This document shows positions 9,001 through 15,000 of a DNA stretch of 28,725 nucleotides, piece after piece. Every line of letters starts with the position of its first letter. Positions within the stretch are counted from its first letter, which is position 1. Origin of the DNA: Verrucomicrobiota bacterium (GTDB lineage Bacteria > Verrucomicrobiota > Verrucomicrobiia > Limisphaerales > CANJXF01); the NCBI GenBank assembly GCA_038214755.1, contig JBBQRQ010000064.1, forward strand, positions 1-28,725, in the 5' to 3' direction. Position numbers: made by a program.

Positions 9001-12000
9001 AATCAAACTGGCGATGCGCATAAACCAGAGCGAAGGCGGCGTTGGCCGCGGTCACGTAGGGCAATTCGTCGATCAGGCCTTCGGAAAAATCTTCGATGAG
9101 GTTGGCCAGAAATTCCAATTGCTCAATCAGGTGCGGGTATTGGGTGTCGTCAATATTGGCGAATTCCAATTTGAGCATCGGCAATTTTTTATAAATGCCT
9201 TTCAAAATTCTCGGCGTGATTTTACCCGCGCCGTTGTGAACGAATTTTACGACCTCACCCATGCCTGCATCGTCTGGCTAACGGGTGAAATAGACAAGAA
9301 CAGTTTCCGCCGATTGATGCGTCAGGGGAATGAGGAATGAAACGCGACCAGCGTCAAATTCTTGCTCCTCAATTCCTTTTCGATTGAGGGACGGAAGACA
9401 ACTGGTTTCAACGCGAAGGACGCAACGGTTTTCGGAGAGGTCGCAAAGGGAAAAAAAATGTTTTTTAGGAAGGTTTTGACTCTGCGTCCCTTTGCGAAAA
9501 CCTTTGCGCCCTCTGCGTTTAATCAGGAACCCGTTGGAATTTACAAAATCCGACGGGATAAAGTAGAGAAACTGGATTTTTAAATAATTTCCACCGGACA
9601 CTTCGGCAACGCATCCAAAAACAATTGTCCGTATTTTTTGGCGAGGACCCGATTATCCAACACGACGACGATTCCTTGATCCGTTTTAGTGCGGATCAAG
9701 CGGCCGACCCCCTGGCGAAATTTCAAAATGGCTTCGGGCAACGAAAAATCCATGAAGGAATTTCCGCCGTGCGCCTCGATATTTTCAATTTTCGCTTCGA
9801 TCAATGGATGATCCGGCACCGCGAACGGCAGTCGCGTGATGATGACGTTGGAAAGCGCTTCGCCGGGAACGTCCACGCCCTGCCAAAAACTGTCGGTGCC
9901 AAAGAGGACGGAATTCACATCAGCCTTAAATTTCTCGAGCATCAGTGAGCGGGGCATACCGGTTCCCTGCACAAAATATTCCAGGCCCAGTTCGGCGAAC
10001 AGCGGCTGCATCCGCTCGGCAATTTTCTGCATCAGTTTATAATTGGTAAAAAGGACAAACGCTTTCCCATGACTCAATCGCAGGAAATGCTCGATCCAAT
10101 GAACGAGCGCATCTTCGTAGCCCGGCTCACGCGGGTCGGGCATTTTTCCTGCGACAAATAATTTCATCTGCCGCTGGTAATCGAAGGGCGATCCCACTTG
10201 CAACAACGTGGATTTCTCCGCGCCGACGCGTGTGGCGAAATAATGTAGGGCAGGCATCCTGCCTGCCTTGGGAGAATGGTCGCGCGAAACTGGCGTTAAA
10301 TCTGCAATCGTGGGATTGGAACTGGGCAGGCTGGAAGCCTGCCCTACGTTTTGCCCTGTGCCGCAGCGGTAGTTTCCTTCTCTCACTCTCGCCTTCGCCG
10401 GATTTTCCCGAATGTAGGCTGCAAATTTTTCCAACTGATGTTCGTCCCGAACAATGTAATCAAATGATTCATCCTGCCAAAATTTTCCGGAACGACGGAG
10501 AAGCGCGTTAATTTTATTTGCGGAGAAAGACTTCCAAGAATGCAAAATATCTTTCAGCAGATATTCGCCCACGGGTTTGACCAGGAGGTGAACGTGGTTG
10601 GGCATGATCACGTAATGACCTAACAGATAGCGTTCGCCGTCGAAAAACTTGAGGGCAGTCTCAACGACAGCTGAGCTTTCTGAATTCCTTAGCCAACAGT
10701 CGCCTTCACCCGCATCAAGCCAACGCTGAAAACGTTCGCTGAATTTTTCATGGTATTCCGCTTTATCCTTCTCGTAATGCGGTTCGGGATGTTGGCGTAA
10801 CCACTCCTCCCGCTCCTGTTCCCATTGCCGCAATTTTTCCTGCGGAATCGAGTCGCCCAGCCGGAACGTAACAAAGTAAGTGCAGCCTTCTTGTCGCCAA
10901 TGCGGCAAGTGCCGACCGTAGCGGGCCACTGGCGCTTTGGGATCGAACGGAGTAAAAAGTAGGGCAGGCATCCTGCCTGCCTCCCCTGCCACTTGTTCCG
11001 GAATTGGCGCGGCTTTTGCGGCCGATGGGATGGGCAGGCTGGAAGCCCGCCCTACTTTTGTCGCGAGCGTAGCGCTGGTCATGATCACCGATGTATCCGA
11101 ACAAAAAAGCCGTTGGCGCAAGAAGTCCGCGACGTTGATAGGCGCTGCGTTGAGCGCGAGGTTTTTTTGTGTCTTGCCGGAACGCTCGACCCAATAAACA
11201 TATTCCTCCTGGCTCTGGCTCAGAAAAGTCGCGATCTCATTTCGCAATTCCGCCAGTCGCCGATTGCATTCCATCAATTCCTGACCGGTATCTTTGTCCT
11301 CGCTGATTTTGATCAACTCGCTGACTGCTTCGCGTAAACGTTGGATCGGCAGCGTCACATTATCTTTCACCAAATCGGGCTGCCGAATCCGCAGTTCCTT
11401 CCAACTTCGATCCTTGTAACCGCCGGTAGCGCCAGACTCCGTCGAGCCATAATTTTTTTTCTGCGCCGCAACAATATTTTCGCACGCTTCTTCCACCGCA
11501 AAAAAGAATTGATCAATCTCTCCGATCAAATCACCCACCAACTTTACCGCCGCGCCTTTTCGCAATGTGGCGAGCAGACCTTTTTCGGTGCGTGGATTCC
11601 AGAGTCGTTGCAGCGCGTAACGCATTTGCCCGCTGGAGACGCTCAGGCCAATGTGTTTTGATGCGACATTTTCCACCTGATGGGCTTCATCAAAAATCAC
11701 GAAATCATTCTTGAAAAGGACGCCGCCTTCCACCTCTTCCTCGATGCCGCCGAGGTTCATAAAAAATAAAGTGTGGTTCAAAACCAGCACGTCGGAAGAA
11801 AGAATTCGGCTGCGCGCGCGCTGGAAAAAACAAGCCGCTCCGGTTTTGGCAAAGTCCGATTGATGTCCGCAAAGTTTGGGCGTGCAGAGTCCGCGTTCCG
11901 AACAAACTTGCGCCCAGACTTTTGGGTCAGGCTCAATTTCAAAATCCGACAAGCTTCCGTCCTCGGTGCCTTTGGACCATTCGTAAACCCGCTGCAATTC

Positions 12001-15000
12001 CTGAATCTCCGGCGAAGTAAAAAGGCTGTCGGCCTGTTGCATGGCTTTGTGCAAACGCCGCGTGCAAAGATAATTTTGCCGGCCTTTGAGCATGGTGAAA
12101 CTGAACTTTACCGGAGTGGGAAGTTGCGCCAAAACTTGTTCGAGCATCGGCAAATCTTTTTCGGCAAGCTGCTCCTGTAGATTAATGGTGTGAGTGGAGA
12201 CAACCGCTTTTTTGCTATTGGCCACCGCGAATAAAATCGCCGGGATCAAATAGGCCAGACTTTTTCCAACACCAGTTCCCGCCTCGACGACGAGATGTTC
12301 TTTTGTCTCCAGCGCGACGGCGACGGCGCGCGCCATTTCCTGTTGCTCGGGGCGATATTCAAAATTTTTCGCCTTGGACAAAATGCCGTTGGGCGAAAAA
12401 ATTTCCGCGACCCGCTCCGCCAGATCGGCGCGCGCTCCGCCGGGTTGTTGTTCGATAATGGAAATCATTTTGCCGAGGGAGGAATATGAAGTTCAACGTT
12501 CGAAGTTCAAAGTTCAAAGTTAGCCGGACGCGAAATCCGAAATCCGAATCCCGAAATCCGAACGCCCGTAGCGCAGCTTTGCAAGCTGCTGTATCGCCGG
12601 TTTGCAACCGGCGGGGCGTCGCGACATCCAGCGGGTTGCAAACCTGCGCTCCCACGTCGGCGGCTACGACGTGGGCGCAATTTTTTCCGCGAACGAGCGG
12701 CAGATTTTTATAAAAGATTCTTCGGCAATGTTCAGTCGGCGGCCGCGACGCGACGCGATGACCCACGTTCGCTTTAATTTCCGTTTGCCCAGCGGCAGCG
12801 CGACCAGAGATTTCTCCTGCAATTCTTTTCGCGCGATCCACGGCGCCAGAATGCTCACGCCCAATCCCAGTTTCACCAATTCCTTGATCGCCTCCATGCT
12901 GCCCAATTCCATCACGGTGTTCAGCGCCATTTTTTCCTGGCGAAAATATTCCCGAATCATCCGCGAGGTCAAACTGCTCTTCTGATACAGAATATAATCC
13001 TGCTTCGGAATTTCCGGGCGTGAGATGCCTTCCGAAATCCACGGATGCGTCGGCGGCAAAATAAAAACCAACTCGTCCGTGAACAACGCTTGAAACTCAA
13101 AAGCCTCTTCGTGCGGCGATTGCAACACCAGCGCCAGATCGATTTGATTATCTTCGAGTAGCTCCATGGCCCGGGCGGTGTCGTCTGAACCAATGTTGAT
13201 CAGGCATTGCGGAAATTGTTTTTTAAATTCGCGCAACACCGGCGGTAAAATGTAATGACACGCCGTCGAACTCGCGCCGATGCGCAAACGCGATTGCCCC
13301 CATTTTCCCAAATGTTGCAGGGAAGATCGCGCAGTTTCCATTTGAGATAAAATTTTCTCGGCGTGATGCAGCAACTGTTCGCCCGCCTGCGTGAGCGAAA
13401 CTTTTTTGTTCACTCTGGCTAAAAGACGACAGCCAACTTCCTCTTCCAAAGCCTTCATCGCGTGACTTACGGCCGATTGCGACAGACAAAGTTCTTTGGC
13501 GGCGAGAGTAAAACTTCCCGTGCGCGCGAGGGTGGCGAAGGCGCGCAACTGCCTGCTATCAAGTGGAAAAATCATTGATGAATTCCGTTCATTTTTTTCC
13601 GCCAAACAATTCAGCGTCGCCGGGCGCGCTTCTGTTCCCTCTGGCATGAGTCGTGCCAACAGTTCGTTTAGAAGACGTGAAGAACAAAAATGATCACCGG
13701 AATTTTTGCGGCTGAACCTCTTCTCACTCGACAAAAAATCACCAATAGAAAAAAAATTATGGACTACATCAAACCAAGCGAAGTCATCGAAACCATGGTG
13801 AAAGCCGGCGTGACCAAAGCCGCGCTCTCCACCAAAGATTTATTGATCCGAGGATTTCTCTCCGGCGCGTTGCTCGGATTCGCGACGAGTCTCGCCATCA
13901 CCGCCACCGTGCAAACGGGAACGCCGCTGATCGGCGCGCTGATTTTTCCCGTCGGCTTTGTCATCATCGTTCTGCTCGGACTCGAATTGGTCACCGGCAG
14001 TTTTGCGCTCGTGCCGCTGGCGCATCGCGAAGGAAAAATTTCCATGGCAACACTCCTGTCAAATCTGGGCTGGGTCTTTCTCGGAAATCTCCTCGGCAGC
14101 CTTTTTTACGCGCTGCTCTTTTATTGCAGCCTGACGATGATGGGCGCAAACGCCCCGGACGCGCTCGGCGCCAAAATCATTTCCATCGCCCAGGCGAAAA
14201 CACTCGGCTACGCAAAATTCGGAACGGCCGGCGTGGTCACCTGTTTTACGAAATCCATTCTCTGCAATTGGATGGTCACGCTCGGCGTCGTGATGGCGAT
14301 GACTTCCACCTCGACGATTGGAAAAATCGCCGGAGCGTGGTTGCCCATTTTTATTTTCTTCGCGCAAGGTTTCGAACATTCGGTCGTGAACATGTTCGTC
14401 ATTCCGCTCGGCATGATGCTCGGAGCGAAAGTCTCCGTTTCCGATTGGTGGCTCTGGAATCAGATCACGGTGACGCTCGGAAATTTTGTCGGCGGATTCG
14501 TGTTCACCGGCCTCGCGCTTTATCTCACGCTGAAACCGAAAAAAGTTTCCGAGACAAACGTAGGGCAGGCTTCCAGCCTGCCCTTCGCAACAACTAGCAT
14601 GGGCAGGCTGGAAGCCTGCCCTACCGCCTTGGACGCGGGAGAATTCGCCGCGAAATAAAAGGTTCGCCGCAAATTTTCGTGAACCCCAATCAACTCATCT
14701 TCATTCCCGACAGCGCGCCGTTCACCGGCGAGCAACGAGCCTGGCTCAATGGTTTTCTCGCCGGCCTATTCGCCGCGCCGTTGAAGAATCCTCCTCCGCA
14801 AGTTTTGCCAACCACAAAACCGTCGCTGACCATTTTGTTTGGCAGTCAAACTGGCAGCGCGGAGCAACTCGCCAAAACCATTTCGCGCGAAGCGGAGCAA
14901 CGTAATTTCGCGCCGCGCGTTTTGCCGATGAATGAGTTTGCGAAAATTGATTTGAAACTCGAACCGCGGCTTCTGCTTGTGACCAGCACCTGGGGTGAAG

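Follow-up and report, generated by a model that had tools for sequence, protein, structure and literature searches.

The only DinG/YoaA-type helicase gene found in a Verrucomicrobiota genome (here G000) carries a full REPtron, with the order REPIN-RAYT-REPIN, that is read in the helicase's own frame and occupies the variable linker that follows motif III. The insert is probably a mobile cassette with an intein-like lifestyle that is read through in the helicase linker and does not splice. The window is the 28,725-nt stretch of contig JBBQRQ010000064.1 that was analyzed. Coordinates are positions in the window, and residue numbers refer to the 962-aa chimeric protein.

Results

The chimeric gene and its parts are as follows.

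9580..12468, minus strand: chimeric ORF, DinG/YoaA-type helicase with REPIN-RAYT-REPIN insert, 962 aa plus stop (ORF, Pfam, NCBIfam, AF2)
11056..12468, minus strand: helicase N-part, aa 1-471, with Walker A, DEAH, four Fe-S cysteines, arch and motif III TSATL (motif alignment, pLDDT 80-93)
10959..11055, minus strand: left REPIN, 97 nt, aa 472-503 plus 1 nt, with REP 11032-11055 (GTAG-tagged) and inverted REP 10959-10981 (ending CTAC) (junction sequence, hairpin covariation)
10348..10958, minus strand: RAYT (Y1 HUH transposase) domain, aa 504-707, with H625-V-H627 and Y685 (Pfam, NCBIfam, motifs, domain model)
10245..10347, minus strand: right REPIN, 103 nt, aa 708-741 plus 1 nt, with REP 10324-10347 and inverted REP 10245-10267 (junction sequence, hairpin covariation)
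9583..10244, minus strand: helicase C-part, aa 742-962, with HD2 and motifs IV-VI (Helicase_C_2 793-956, 8.5e-46)

The initial annotation described a helicase gene that is interrupted and remains one open frame, and this proved correct. The ORF starts with ATG, has no internal stops, and measures 970 aa from stop to stop. The NCBIfam matches to YoaA (1.5e-165) and DinG (8.7e-138) are each split into two stretches, ∼22-471 and ∼742-958, which flank a REP_Tyr_transpos match (2.3e-15), although neither the helicase nor the RAYT part reaches the curated NCBIfam cutoffs. Pfam returned DEAD at 47-109, Y1_Tnp at 616-689 (28.4 bits, cutoff 23), and Helicase_C_2. The RAYT motifs were likewise intact as annotated (YFVTFRL, the HUH motif MPNHVHLL, and Y685..N689-P690), and the embedded RAYT has neither a start nor a stop codon of its own. 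The insert, aa 472-741, replaces the native linker after TSATL. The locus is syntenic with that of relatives, and the helicase N-part resembles that of same-genus genomes right up to the junction. A Pfam search of the chimera found no Hint or intein domain, and the boundary residues (V472 at the left, L741/H742 at the right) vary in relatives. Nothing in these features suggests splicing.

In the AF2 model of the whole chain, whose best match is E. coli DinG (6fwr_A, E = 2e-29), pLDDT is 80-93 for the helicase, 83-94 for the RAYT domain, and below 50 for the REPIN-coded segments 470-508 and 710-738. Modeled separately, the RAYT domain reaches a pLDDT of 86 and matches TnpA-REP best by fold (4er8_A, E = 1.5e-5). 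The DNA was also checked by reassembly. A 1101-nt contig, built with an independent assembler from the probable source run, covers both junctions with zero differences, at a depth of 24 versus 23 in the flanks.

The left REPIN reads GTAGGGCGGGCTTCCAGCCTGCCC ... GGCAGGCAGGATGCCTGCCCTAC, and the ends of the right REPIN are the same except for A in place of G at one stem position. Their translations are VGRASSLP...AGRMPAL and VGQASSLP...AGRMPAL, respectively. Both junctions thus read as first described, with a GTAG-tagged REP doublet before the RAYT and a doublet ending in CTAC after it. GTAGGGCAGGC has 244 matches in G000 with at most one mismatch, and the GTAG-tagged and inverted flank REPs have 94 and 97 matches, respectively, with at most two mismatches, in line with the ∼120-240 copies reported earlier. 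Between 35 and 39% of the flank-type REPs in G000 lie inside frames that run for at least 250 aa without a stop. In a set of 47 REPs drawn from 15 genomes, 98% of cells are paired and compensatory changes occur at 5 of 9 base pairs, a result matched in 0 of 500 shuffles. The flanking REPs are maintained as nucleic-acid hairpins through compensatory changes. On the sense strand, the inverted REP of the left REPIN together with the CTACTTTTTA after it resembles a terminator.

Of 401 genomes sampled from the order, 15 (13 families, G000 included) carry this chimera at the same site; it also occurs in more than 100 metagenome protein clusters and in at least 96 full-length database proteins besides the window's own. 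The chimera is therefore widespread rather than peculiar to G000. The initial annotation had found the insert in this genome only, which holds among 40 relatives from 33 genera (a RAYT inside the helicase frame in none) but not order-wide, given the 14 further genomes and the database proteins. It had also cautioned that recurrence at the DinG site could reflect tolerance rather than targeting, a question now partly answered. The insert directly follows TSATL(A/G)T in all 97 full-length database matches, the window's own protein included, and occupies the same site in all 14 other genome copies, so that the left junction is the same in 111 chimeras. On the right, the REPIN adjoins xYF in every junction read, about a dozen chimeras, a count that leaves out 7 of the 14 genome copies.

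These 111 chimeras (97 database proteins and 14 genome copies, chosen by RAYT similarity) were compared for conservation of both enzymes. All 111 have Walker A, DEAH, motif VI, and three Fe-S cysteines, 110 of them also have the fourth cysteine, and FGTDSFWQGVD and RQGVGRLIR of the helicase C-part are invariant or nearly so. RAYT residues H625, H627, Y685, N689, W645, and K646 are found in all 111. For two same-genus pairs, dN/dS is 0.08 and 0.15 for the RAYT and 0.11 and 0.17 for the helicase. The G000 helicase gives 0.03-0.07 versus 0.03-0.05 for insert-free pairs, with dS saturated. Both enzymes are thus under purifying selection in the 111 chimeras.

Helicase and RAYT histories were found to differ. 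Their distances are weakly correlated (r = 0.22, 6105 pairs), helicase pairs in the 0.02-0.05 distance bin average 0.30 in RAYT distance, helicases that are 97% identical have RAYTs that are 32% different, and helicase clusters within 8% contain up to four RAYT strains more than 25% apart. AU tests on a set of 30 rows chosen for discordance reject congruence (p = 5e-8, 2e-4, and 2e-7). On a FastTree phylogeny of 233 helicases, RAYT state requires 39 changes, at least 25 of these on starred branches. Native linker, full cassette, and solo REPIN all occur among helicases at least 95.7% identical (P0210, P0198, and P0084), and the solo REPIN is equal to the right REPIN of a sister chimera (e.g., P0189/P0190 versus P0030). 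These comparisons show that the RAYT lineage keeps to a single site in a single gene and is inherited independently of that gene. The cassette is exchanged for other RAYT "strains" and shrinks to a solo REPIN through loss of the RAYT and one REPIN.

The G000 helicase is sister to the insert-free P0121 (95% identical; 100, starred) in a clade of 14 native genes and one with a RAYT (99, starred). All 14 insert-free relatives have a homologous native linker, ..NRKSGLNYFA.., which is entirely missing from G000. The nesting of G000 among relatives with a common linker that it lacks shows that its lineage gained the cassette after diverging from the closest relative sampled, and that the cassette replaced the native linker exactly. 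The choice between gain and loss, left open initially, is thus resolved as gain for G000. The closest RAYT among 5.8 billion proteins is only 72% identical to the insert, and therefore the donor is not among the sampled sequences. No clear conversion tract was seen beside the junctions, and the only residues going with the insert are T470 (11.1 versus 0.1 of 25 independent pairs) and Q755 (9.4 versus 1.8), which leaves recombination-based homing just a candidate. As a separate observation, transposition alone would not remove the native linker.

G000 has nine RAYT loci. Two further in-frame RAYTs noted initially are real: a 1439-aa ORF on contig C33 with UDPGP and Y1_Tnp in one frame, and a 998-aa ORF on C88 with PriA domains and Y1_Tnp at 22.7 bits, slightly below the cutoff of 23. 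Free-standing REPtrons with their own REP types lie on C5, C10, C149, and C41. RAYTs group by host gene (DinG, PriA, DnaE, ClpB, HsdR, and the UDPGP-like gene), with 18 label changes versus 44.7 in shuffles, none of 200 being as low. Many hosts of embedded RAYTs act on DNA (PriA, DnaE, HsdR, SNF2, RecG, XseA, and type IIG enzymes); others include tRNA synthetases, CarB, ClpB, HypF, and adenosine deaminase.

Discussion

We propose that a REPtron no longer has a start or stop codon of its own and resides, as a cassette read in frame, in the HD1-HD2 linker, an unstructured stretch of the sole DinG/YoaA-type helicase. The gene would be transcribed and translated as one ∼106-kDa polypeptide, in which the two REPIN-encoded stretches may serve as ∼30-residue flexible tethers, the RAYT would fold as a separate domain, and the helicase would remain functional. 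Recombination with a chimeric allele and RAYT-catalyzed strand transfer are candidate routes to the same junctions. We found no description of a helicase-embedded, read-through RAYT cassette in the literature searched.

An old domesticated helicase-nuclease fusion, with the RAYT recruited once, inherited vertically, lost many times, and no longer mobile, would account for the invariant catalytic residues of both parts, the identical junctions, and the sister RAYTs of same-genus chimeras (G295/G371 and G163/G265). There is also a family of nuclease-fused DinG relatives (NCBIfam PRK07246 and TIGR01407 matches), and many embedded-RAYT hosts act on DNA. We nevertheless consider it unlikely. The RAYT and helicase trees are incongruent, losses could not recreate the native linker common to the 14 relatives around G000, and solo-REPIN and native alleles stand beside chimeras among near-identical helicases. 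Furthermore, compensatory change in the REP hairpins reflects a DNA or RNA constraint that is useless to a pure protein domain, and the hosts also include proteins such as tRNA synthetases and CarB. A helicase gene broken by a transposon that landed in frame by chance, or an assembly artefact, is very unlikely. The sequence was found in one source run only and all 40 nearest genomes lack the insert, but the independent assembly bridges both junctions at equal depth and the frame is open in all 111 full-length chimeras with catalytic residues invariant. In addition, three of the nine RAYT loci of G000 are in frame in ORFs of 962-1439 aa, and stop-free frames of 565-1694 aa enclose 68 of the 85 RAYT matches found in the order sample.

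It is also quite unlikely that the mature products are something other than the chimera, arising either through RAYT-catalyzed ssDNA excision that restores an intact gene in part of the population, or through termination at the left REPIN and internal initiation to give a split helicase and a RAYT-HD2 protein. IS200/IS605-type enzymes excise precisely from single strands. The terminator-like hairpin and T-run (10963-10981, sense strand), together with an ATG (M500) in the inverted-REP loop of the left REPIN, make separate products conceivable in G000, which also has a GTG (V493...) before the RAYT. That loop ATG is shared by 6 of 15 genomes, G000 included. However, neither the T-run nor the start codons are conserved (G366 has CTACTCTTCACC there), and no conserved internal start was found, as 6 of 15 genomes have none of ATG, GTG, and TTG within the 26 codons that precede LPHW. 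An internally started product would continue into HD2, since the RAYT has no stop codon, and excision at the REP ends would leave zero linker between TSATLATK and HYFA. The frame is open throughout the insert in every full-length chimera examined, for which there is no need if the insert is removed.

The read-through cassette shares with known REPtrons (E. coli TnpA-REP, PDB 4ER8, and Pseudomonas RAYT-REPIN systems) the REPIN-RAYT-REPIN order, the GTAG/CTAC tags, the GC hairpins, the HUH and Tyr motifs, and the 4er8_A fold. It differs in being read inside a host ORF without its own start and stop, and in a lineage that keeps to one site in one host gene and turns over horizontally. RAYTs are described as typically single-copy in the part of Bertels et al. 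(2017) consulted, whereas G000 has several lineages among its nine loci. Palindromic repeats inserted in frame and translated, as in the DinG cassette, are known from intragenic REPs and from the Rickettsia palindromic elements cited with them (Di Nocera et al., 2013, PMC3733652). In the passages and Additional file 3 rows examined of that paper, intragenic REPs are commonest in the verrucomicrobium Opitutus terrae, many lie in replication and repair genes, and the inserts listed in those rows encode 7-8 aa (70 occurrences for O. terrae), while the text gives dimers 20-30 aa and clusters 43-82 aa; no RAYT is described within them there. Those are non-autonomous pieces, whereas the DinG cassette includes the transposase gene (∼204 aa) in frame.

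Nuclease-fused DinG helicases (NCBIfam "bifunctional DnaQ family exonuclease/ATP-dependent helicase") also join helicase and nuclease in one polypeptide, but the DnaQ fusion is fixed, N-terminal, and without repeats, whereas the chimera has an internal, repeat-flanked cassette that is polymorphic for presence. IStrons, which join a group I intron to an IS200/IS605-type transposase and are spliced out of RNA, have a transposase of the same superfamily and likewise spare the host gene; there a ribozyme does so, whereas the DinG cassette has none and is translated. A parallel in lifestyle, as the initial annotation proposed, is with inteins, here those carrying homing endonucleases. Both occupy conserved housekeeping genes in frame (DnaE and helicases among them), with one lineage per insertion site, sporadic distribution, element and host phylogenies that disagree, and a cycle of empty, full, and degenerate alleles, here native linker, full cassette, and solo REPIN. 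Intein splicing requires Cys/Ser/Thr nucleophiles at the boundaries. The cassette has V...L/H there and no Hint domain, it encodes a single-strand HUH transposase and ends in DNA hairpins, and it presumably stays in the mature protein. The DinG cassette thus follows the cycle of invasion, decay, and loss known from inteins and homing endonucleases, minus the splicing.

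Anatomy of the chimeric helicase gene

The minus strand of the window carries, at 9580-12468, one open reading frame of 962 aa that begins with ATG. The NCBIfam models YoaA (1.5e-165, 552.5 bits) and DinG (8.7e-138, 460.8 bits) each match it in two stretches, one ending near residue 471 and the other restarting near residue 742, and both score under their curated cutoffs of 680 and 789 bits. The REP-associated tyrosine transposase (RAYT) model REP_Tyr_transpos also matches (2.3e-15, 56.8 bits, under its curated cutoff of 80). In sense-strand order, the parts of the gene are as follows.

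Residues 47-109: DEAD domain (Pfam)
Motif III of the helicase, ...ATGACCAGCGCTACGCTCGCGACAAAA on the sense strand, directly before the left REPIN (inverted REP pair)
Window 11055-10959, minus strand: left REPIN, GTAGGGCGGGCTTCCAGCCTGCCC + 51-nt spacer + GGCAGGCAGGATGCCTGCCCTAC
Window 10958-10348, minus strand: RAYT part, 611 nt
Residues 616-689: Y1_Tnp domain (Pfam, 28.4 bits against a cutoff of 23)
Window 10347-10245, minus strand: right REPIN, the same two REPs with a 57-nt spacer
Directly after the right REPIN: ATTATTTCGCC, encoding H-Y-F-A
Residues 793-956: Helicase_C_2 domain (Pfam)

This order of REPINs, RAYT and helicase defines the insert as V472-L741. Both arms consist of inverted, GTAG-tagged REP hairpins around a short spacer and belong to a genomic repeat family, as expected of REPINs. 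The RAYT part has neither a start codon nor a stop codon of its own and contains the HUH motif H625-V-H627 and the catalytic Y685, while the helicase portion contains GTGVGKS, DEAH, the cysteines C135, C195, C200 and C213, and RQGVGRLIR. The single reading frame, the split family matches and the REPIN positions thus bear out the initial annotation, which had described a whole RAYT unit read in the frame of the helicase. The helicase portion is an orthologue of the insert-free gene: it is 84-88% identical to the helicases of the same genus, and a 134-aa downstream gene is kept beside the helicase in eight insert-free and three chimeric loci.

The region just upstream of the helicase start (window 12490-12650) contains two heptamer runs, (AAGTTCA)n and (CGAAATC)n, and after them a REPIN that belongs to a different family (GTAGCGCAGCTTTGCAAGCTGC...). 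Depth in the Logan contigs rises to ∼1350 in this region. Similar heptamers, CAAAGT(C/T), form part of the native helicase linker in same-genus genomes.

A search of sequencing runs placed the stretch in one DNA run, a sediment metagenome that is probably its source, and listed no RNA run containing it. Among the independent Logan contigs of that run, a 1101-nt piece (10162-11262) spans both junctions with 0 differences, at a depth of 24 versus 23 in the flanks. No empty-site joint was found in these contigs, which drop rare variants and are therefore uninformative on excision. The contigs also hold a weak joint, 10482>10592 (side 21, depth 9).

Distribution of the chimera

None of the 40 nearest genomes (33 genera), all of which have the helicase, carries a RAYT inside it; the unpublished G009 counts among these 40 and otherwise supplies one linker-alignment row and one synteny row. 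Among the relatives it compared, the initial annotation had the insert in this genome only, which holds for these nearest genomes and fails at the level of the order, where a junction-spanning query of 401 genomes recovered the full chimera in 15, this one included, from 13 families. Two genera in this sample are polymorphic for the chimera. In protein databases, the RAYT part, queried against longer proteins, had 1227 matches at E <= 1e-10; 97 of the best 120, including the window's own protein, are DinG-type helicases of 900-1000 aa. Most of these 97 are annotated with Y1_Tnp, and their RAYTs are 58-72% identical to that of the genome under study. An example of the names given to such proteins, from Verrucomicrobiota MAGs, is 'Rad3-related DNA helicase/REP element-mobilizing transposase RayT'. 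The insert starts at the same place in all chimeras, where TSATL(A/G)T(K) is followed directly by the REP peptide VGQAS(R/S)L, and ends in ...PAL|xYF in the right junctions printed for about a dozen chimeras. The in-frame REPtron (RAYT gene with REPIN arms) in the helicase is real, widespread and conserved.

Selective constraint and predicted structure

An alignment of 111 chimeras showed that both parts of the protein are conserved. Walker A, DEAH and motif VI occur in 111/111, as do three Fe-S cysteines, the fourth being present in 110/111; the RAYT residues H625, H627, Y685, N689, W645 and K646 occur in every sequence. For two of the four same-genus chimera pairs, dN/dS was 0.11 and 0.17 for the helicase and 0.08 and 0.15 for the RAYT. 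The helicase of this genome has a dN/dS of 0.03-0.07 against same-genus genomes, which is like that of insert-free pairs and was obtained at saturated dS. No second helicase of the DinG/YoaA type was found in the genome.

Both REPINs of a genome carry that genome's own REP variant (e.g., GGGCAGGC/GCCTGCCC, GGACAGGC/GCCTGTCT and GGACCGGC/GCCGGTC; one such comparison covers 6 of 15 genomes). Across 47 REPs from 15 genomes, 98.1% of hairpin cells are paired, a value inflated by the pre-selection of REPs with a hairpin filter that allows at most one stem mismatch. Five of nine stem pairs have changes on both sides (41 cells), a covariation reached in 0/500 shuffles. This pattern, judged from sequence, indicates that the REPs are DNA or RNA elements beyond their coding of peptide.

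An AF2 model of the chimera from a 108-row alignment had a mean pLDDT of 75, with 80-93 for the helicase and 83-94 for the RAYT domain. Values below 50 were confined to residues 470-508 and 710-738, the REPIN-coded parts. The best fold match of the chimera model was E. coli DinG (6fwr_A, 2e-29). Modelled alone, the RAYT domain reached a pLDDT of 86 and its best Foldseek match was 4er8_A (1.5e-5, TM 0.48-0.54), a structure of TnpA-REP bound to a REP hairpin; TnpAs of the IS200/IS605 family came next. A RAYT profile search likewise matched 4er8 at 1.6e-4, while phmmer with the RAYT part against PDB sequences returned nothing at E <= 0.01.

Readings of the chimera as a pseudogene, as an artefact or as an intein were all rejected. 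A pseudogene reading has to accommodate the conserved catalytic residues of both parts, and an artefact reading the independent contig across both junctions and the recurrence of the chimera in 13 families. The intein reading shares with ours an insert read in the host's frame, but no intein or Hint family was matched at E <= 0.01 in Pfam, and the insert is bounded by V472 and L741|H742. The residue following the insert differs among chimeras (L, R, A or H). Nor is the insert an autonomous IS200/IS605 unit, which would have its own transposase ORF and several near-identical copies: it lacks start and stop codons of its own, and its nearest paralogue in the genome is 52.6% identical. We retain the reading of the insert as a REPtron within the helicase gene.

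Separate histories of the insert and the helicase

Among the 111 chimeras (6105 pairs), the distance between two RAYTs tracks that between their helicases with r = 0.22 (Mantel, 0/999 permutations as high). Helicases less than 2% apart have RAYTs at most 3% apart; at helicase distances of 2-5%, the mean RAYT distance is 30% (range 6-46%). Clusters of helicases within 8% contain up to four RAYT strains that differ by more than 25%, each with its own REP type. AU tests, carried out on a 30-row subset picked to include discordant cases, rejected the monophyly of two RAYT strains on helicase data (p = 5e-8 and 2e-4) and that of one helicase cluster on RAYT data (p = 2e-7). In two pairs of chimeras, each from a single genus, the RAYT has diverged more at synonymous sites than the helicase around it (0.98 versus 0.39 for loci L022/L023 and 0.24 versus 0.14 for L024/L026), a ratio of 1.7-2.5. 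In the genus g39, the helicase flanks of the chimeric G371 share 0.91/0.93 nucleotide identity with the insert-free G386 and 0.89/0.91 with the chimeric G295, despite which the RAYTs of G371 and G295 are sisters. Taken together, the distances, the AU tests and the g39 comparison indicate that the insert and its host gene have different histories.

Three allele states and a gain of the cassette

We classed 233 helicases, comprising the chimeras and the best matches by helicase similarity, by regular expression with reading by eye; 123 have a RAYT, 99 a native linker and 11 a solo REPIN. On a FastTree phylogeny of the helicase columns only, the RAYT state requires 39 changes (no fewer than 25 on well-supported branches), as compared to 77 with shuffled labels. 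The solo REPIN consists of the left junction and the right REPIN of a sister chimera, as would be expected if recombination between the two direct REPINs deleted the left REPIN together with the RAYT. Solo proteins P0189/P0190 have 95.6% helicase identity to chimera P0030, P0198/P0173 have 96.6% to P0084, and P0226 pairs with chimera P0058. All three states occur among close alleles, since the helicases of native P0210, solo P0198 and full P0084 are at least 95.7% identical. REPIN-only linkers with the same junctions and frame also occur in insert-free helicases (locus L011 of G034, P0138, P0165, P0230 and others), and on this ground the variable linker of the helicase may often be decayed REPIN DNA.

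The initial annotation left gain versus loss in this genome undecided, and the tree argues for gain. The helicase is sister to the native-linker P0121 (100, well supported) in a 15-row clade of 14 native and 1 RAYT proteins (99, well supported). None of the 51 best-matching helicases other than its own (93-75% identity) has the insert, and chimeras make up 9 of the best 120. A homologous linker, ...(I/Q)V(N/D)RKSGLNYFA..., is common to the relatives in the clade and wholly absent here, and the helicase resembles its own genus to within ∼2 codons to the left and ∼5 to the right of the cassette. From these alignments we conclude that the genome gained the cassette, which replaced the native linker exactly; plain transposition would not be expected to lose the linker. 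The nearest known RAYT to the cassette is only 72% identical.

No conversion tract was detected beyond ∼2 codons to the left and ∼5 to the right of the insert. These tests compared protein windows of this genome with 14 insert-free and 110 chimeric helicases, used independent pairs, and included g39 nucleotide comparisons in 15-codon windows (two chimeric versus two insert-free genomes). In independent-pair tests at six flank positions, T470 (11.1 versus 0.1 of 25 pairs) and Q755 (9.4 versus 1.8 of 25) co-occur with the insert, and R747, R746, A745 and S752 have no such association. The T470/Q755 association hints at either a short co-conversion or a target requirement.

Expression signals around the embedded RAYT

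The 26 codons before the RAYT sequence LPHW have no ATG, GTG or TTG in 6 of 15 genomes, and no internal start is conserved, leaving read-through as the one route that all 15 share. Within the left REPIN, the loop of the inverted REP contains an in-frame ATG (M500), here and in 5 of 14 other genomes. On the sense strand, that inverted REP and the CTACTTTTTA after it form a terminator-like hairpin with a T-run at window 10981-10963. Given these two features, a split product in this genome is possible. Scanning for promoters ahead of the RAYT gave no convincing candidate; on the sense strand the best match scored 9/12 and lies 400 nt upstream.

RAYTs and REPs across the genome

The genome (5.1 Mb, 175 contigs, 52.7% GC) contains nine RAYT loci by tblastn, of which three lie in frame in long reading frames by Pfam: the helicase, a 1439-aa UDPGP-like protein on contig C33 and a 998-aa PriA on C88. 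The latter two, also named in the initial annotation, are thus present. Free-standing REPtrons of the ordinary kind, each with its own start, stop and REP types, are found on C5, C149, C10 (with an internal stop) and C41, and the loci on C13 and C37 have no recognisable REPs. The REP types GTAGCGCAGG.. and GTAGCGCAGC.. of the C10 RAYT (C10:59202-60083, with an in-frame stop) are the most abundant in the genome, with 149 and 43 hairpin matches.

Scanning the genome for GT[AG]G-tagged GC hairpins returned 763 matches; 43% of them fall in frames without a stop that are 250 aa or longer, as compared to 76% of random 30-nt intervals. For the REP type that flanks the helicase RAYT, the share is 35-39% of 117 + 43 copies. 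These in-frame REPs agree with passages of Di Nocera et al. 2013 (PMC3733652), according to which intragenic GTAG REPs are most numerous in Opitutus terrae, a verrucomicrobium, with many in replication and repair genes; the list rows of that source concerned here give short inserts of 7-8 aa, with no RAYT among those rows and passages. Doublets of the flanking type number 56 genome-wide, ∼50 being four-hairpin, GTGG-tagged REPINs of 91-97 nt spread over the genome (e.g., C1, C3, C6, C24 and C28), whose outer hairpins match the RAYT flanks of both DinG and the C33 gene. Within the window, a 91-nt REPIN of this form lies at 15273-15363 and a 66-nt GTAG-tagged doublet, exactly of the helicase-RAYT flank type, at 14559-14624.

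Embedded RAYTs in other host genes

Of the 85 RAYT matches in the order sample (E <= 1e-20), 68 fall within stop-free frames of 565-1694 aa. We assembled 50 further embedded copies (15 automatic and 40 chosen for long frames, less 5 short ones dropped) and assigned hosts by Pfam: PriA (15), UDPGP-like (8), type I R subunit (6), DnaE (4), ClpB (3), type IIG methylase-nuclease (2), a second DinG type (1), SNF2 (1), CarB (1) and no Pfam host (9). In a 67-row RAYT tree, 14 of 15 DinG copies and one free copy form a clade (96), as do the DnaE (97) and ClpB (100) copies, all three on well-supported branches; all 15 PriA copies fall in one clade with two HsdR copies and one free copy. RAYTs cluster by host gene on this tree, where host labels need 18 changes versus 44.7 when shuffled. 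The DnaE-embedded RAYTs, while one clade, occupy two sites in the protein, at ∼aa 900-950 in three genomes (L054, L077 and L082) and at ∼aa 370 in G005 (L081).

In a library of 1.84 billion representatives, a RAYT profile had 2431 matches at E <= 1e-30. Among the best 150 of these, 62 are at least 450 aa long and 79 continue past the domain, on one side, by more than 120 aa. Further host domains were recognized at E <= 1e-12 in 31 of 47 long RAYT proteins, including type IIG enzymes, LeuRS, ValRS, RecG, XseA, HypF, adenosine deaminase, radical-SAM, CarB and PriA. A general rule of functional coupling to fork helicases is weakened by the LeuRS, ValRS, CarB, HypF and adenosine deaminase hosts.

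Comparison with known systems

A full-text literature search, which did not extend to the supplements of Quentin et al., found no paper describing a RAYT in frame in a host gene. A passage of Quentin et al. 2018 (PMC6006769) mentions 'unexpectedly long' RAYT proteins that were discarded as errors, which makes the chimeras relevant to annotation. New here are the DinG site, the three allele states, the incongruence tests and the dated gain in this genome.

The helicase REPtron behaves like a non-splicing analogue of an intein, presumably expressed by read-through of the helicase. It is quite possible, if just short of probable in our judgment, that a large RAYT clade of the PVC group (Planctomycetota-Verrucomicrobiota-Chlamydiota) is in general such a counterpart: each lineage keeping to one fixed linker site in one housekeeping gene (DinG, PriA, DnaE, ClpB, HsdR, tRNA synthetases and others), expressed only by read-through, spreading independently of the host gene, and decaying to solo REPINs that become host linkers. 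If so, a transposon family both parasitises essential proteins and builds their inter-domain linkers. The helicase REPtron offers a system for tests of how an HUH transposase chooses its target, of how proteins gain linkers and domains from mobile DNA, and of whether coupling a single-strand transposase to fork-associated helicases or polymerases serves the element.

RAYTs are usually viewed as single-copy, extragenic and vertically inherited helpers of REPINs. In contrast, the embedded copies would be a transposase gene without its own expression signals that survives as a domain inside essential proteins, in site-faithful lineages with a cycle of invasion, decay and loss. Two ways to sit harmlessly in a gene are known, protein splicing (inteins) and RNA splicing (introns and IStrons). 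The embedded REPtron would be a third, a tolerated domain held by flexible tethers for which the element's own repeats would code.
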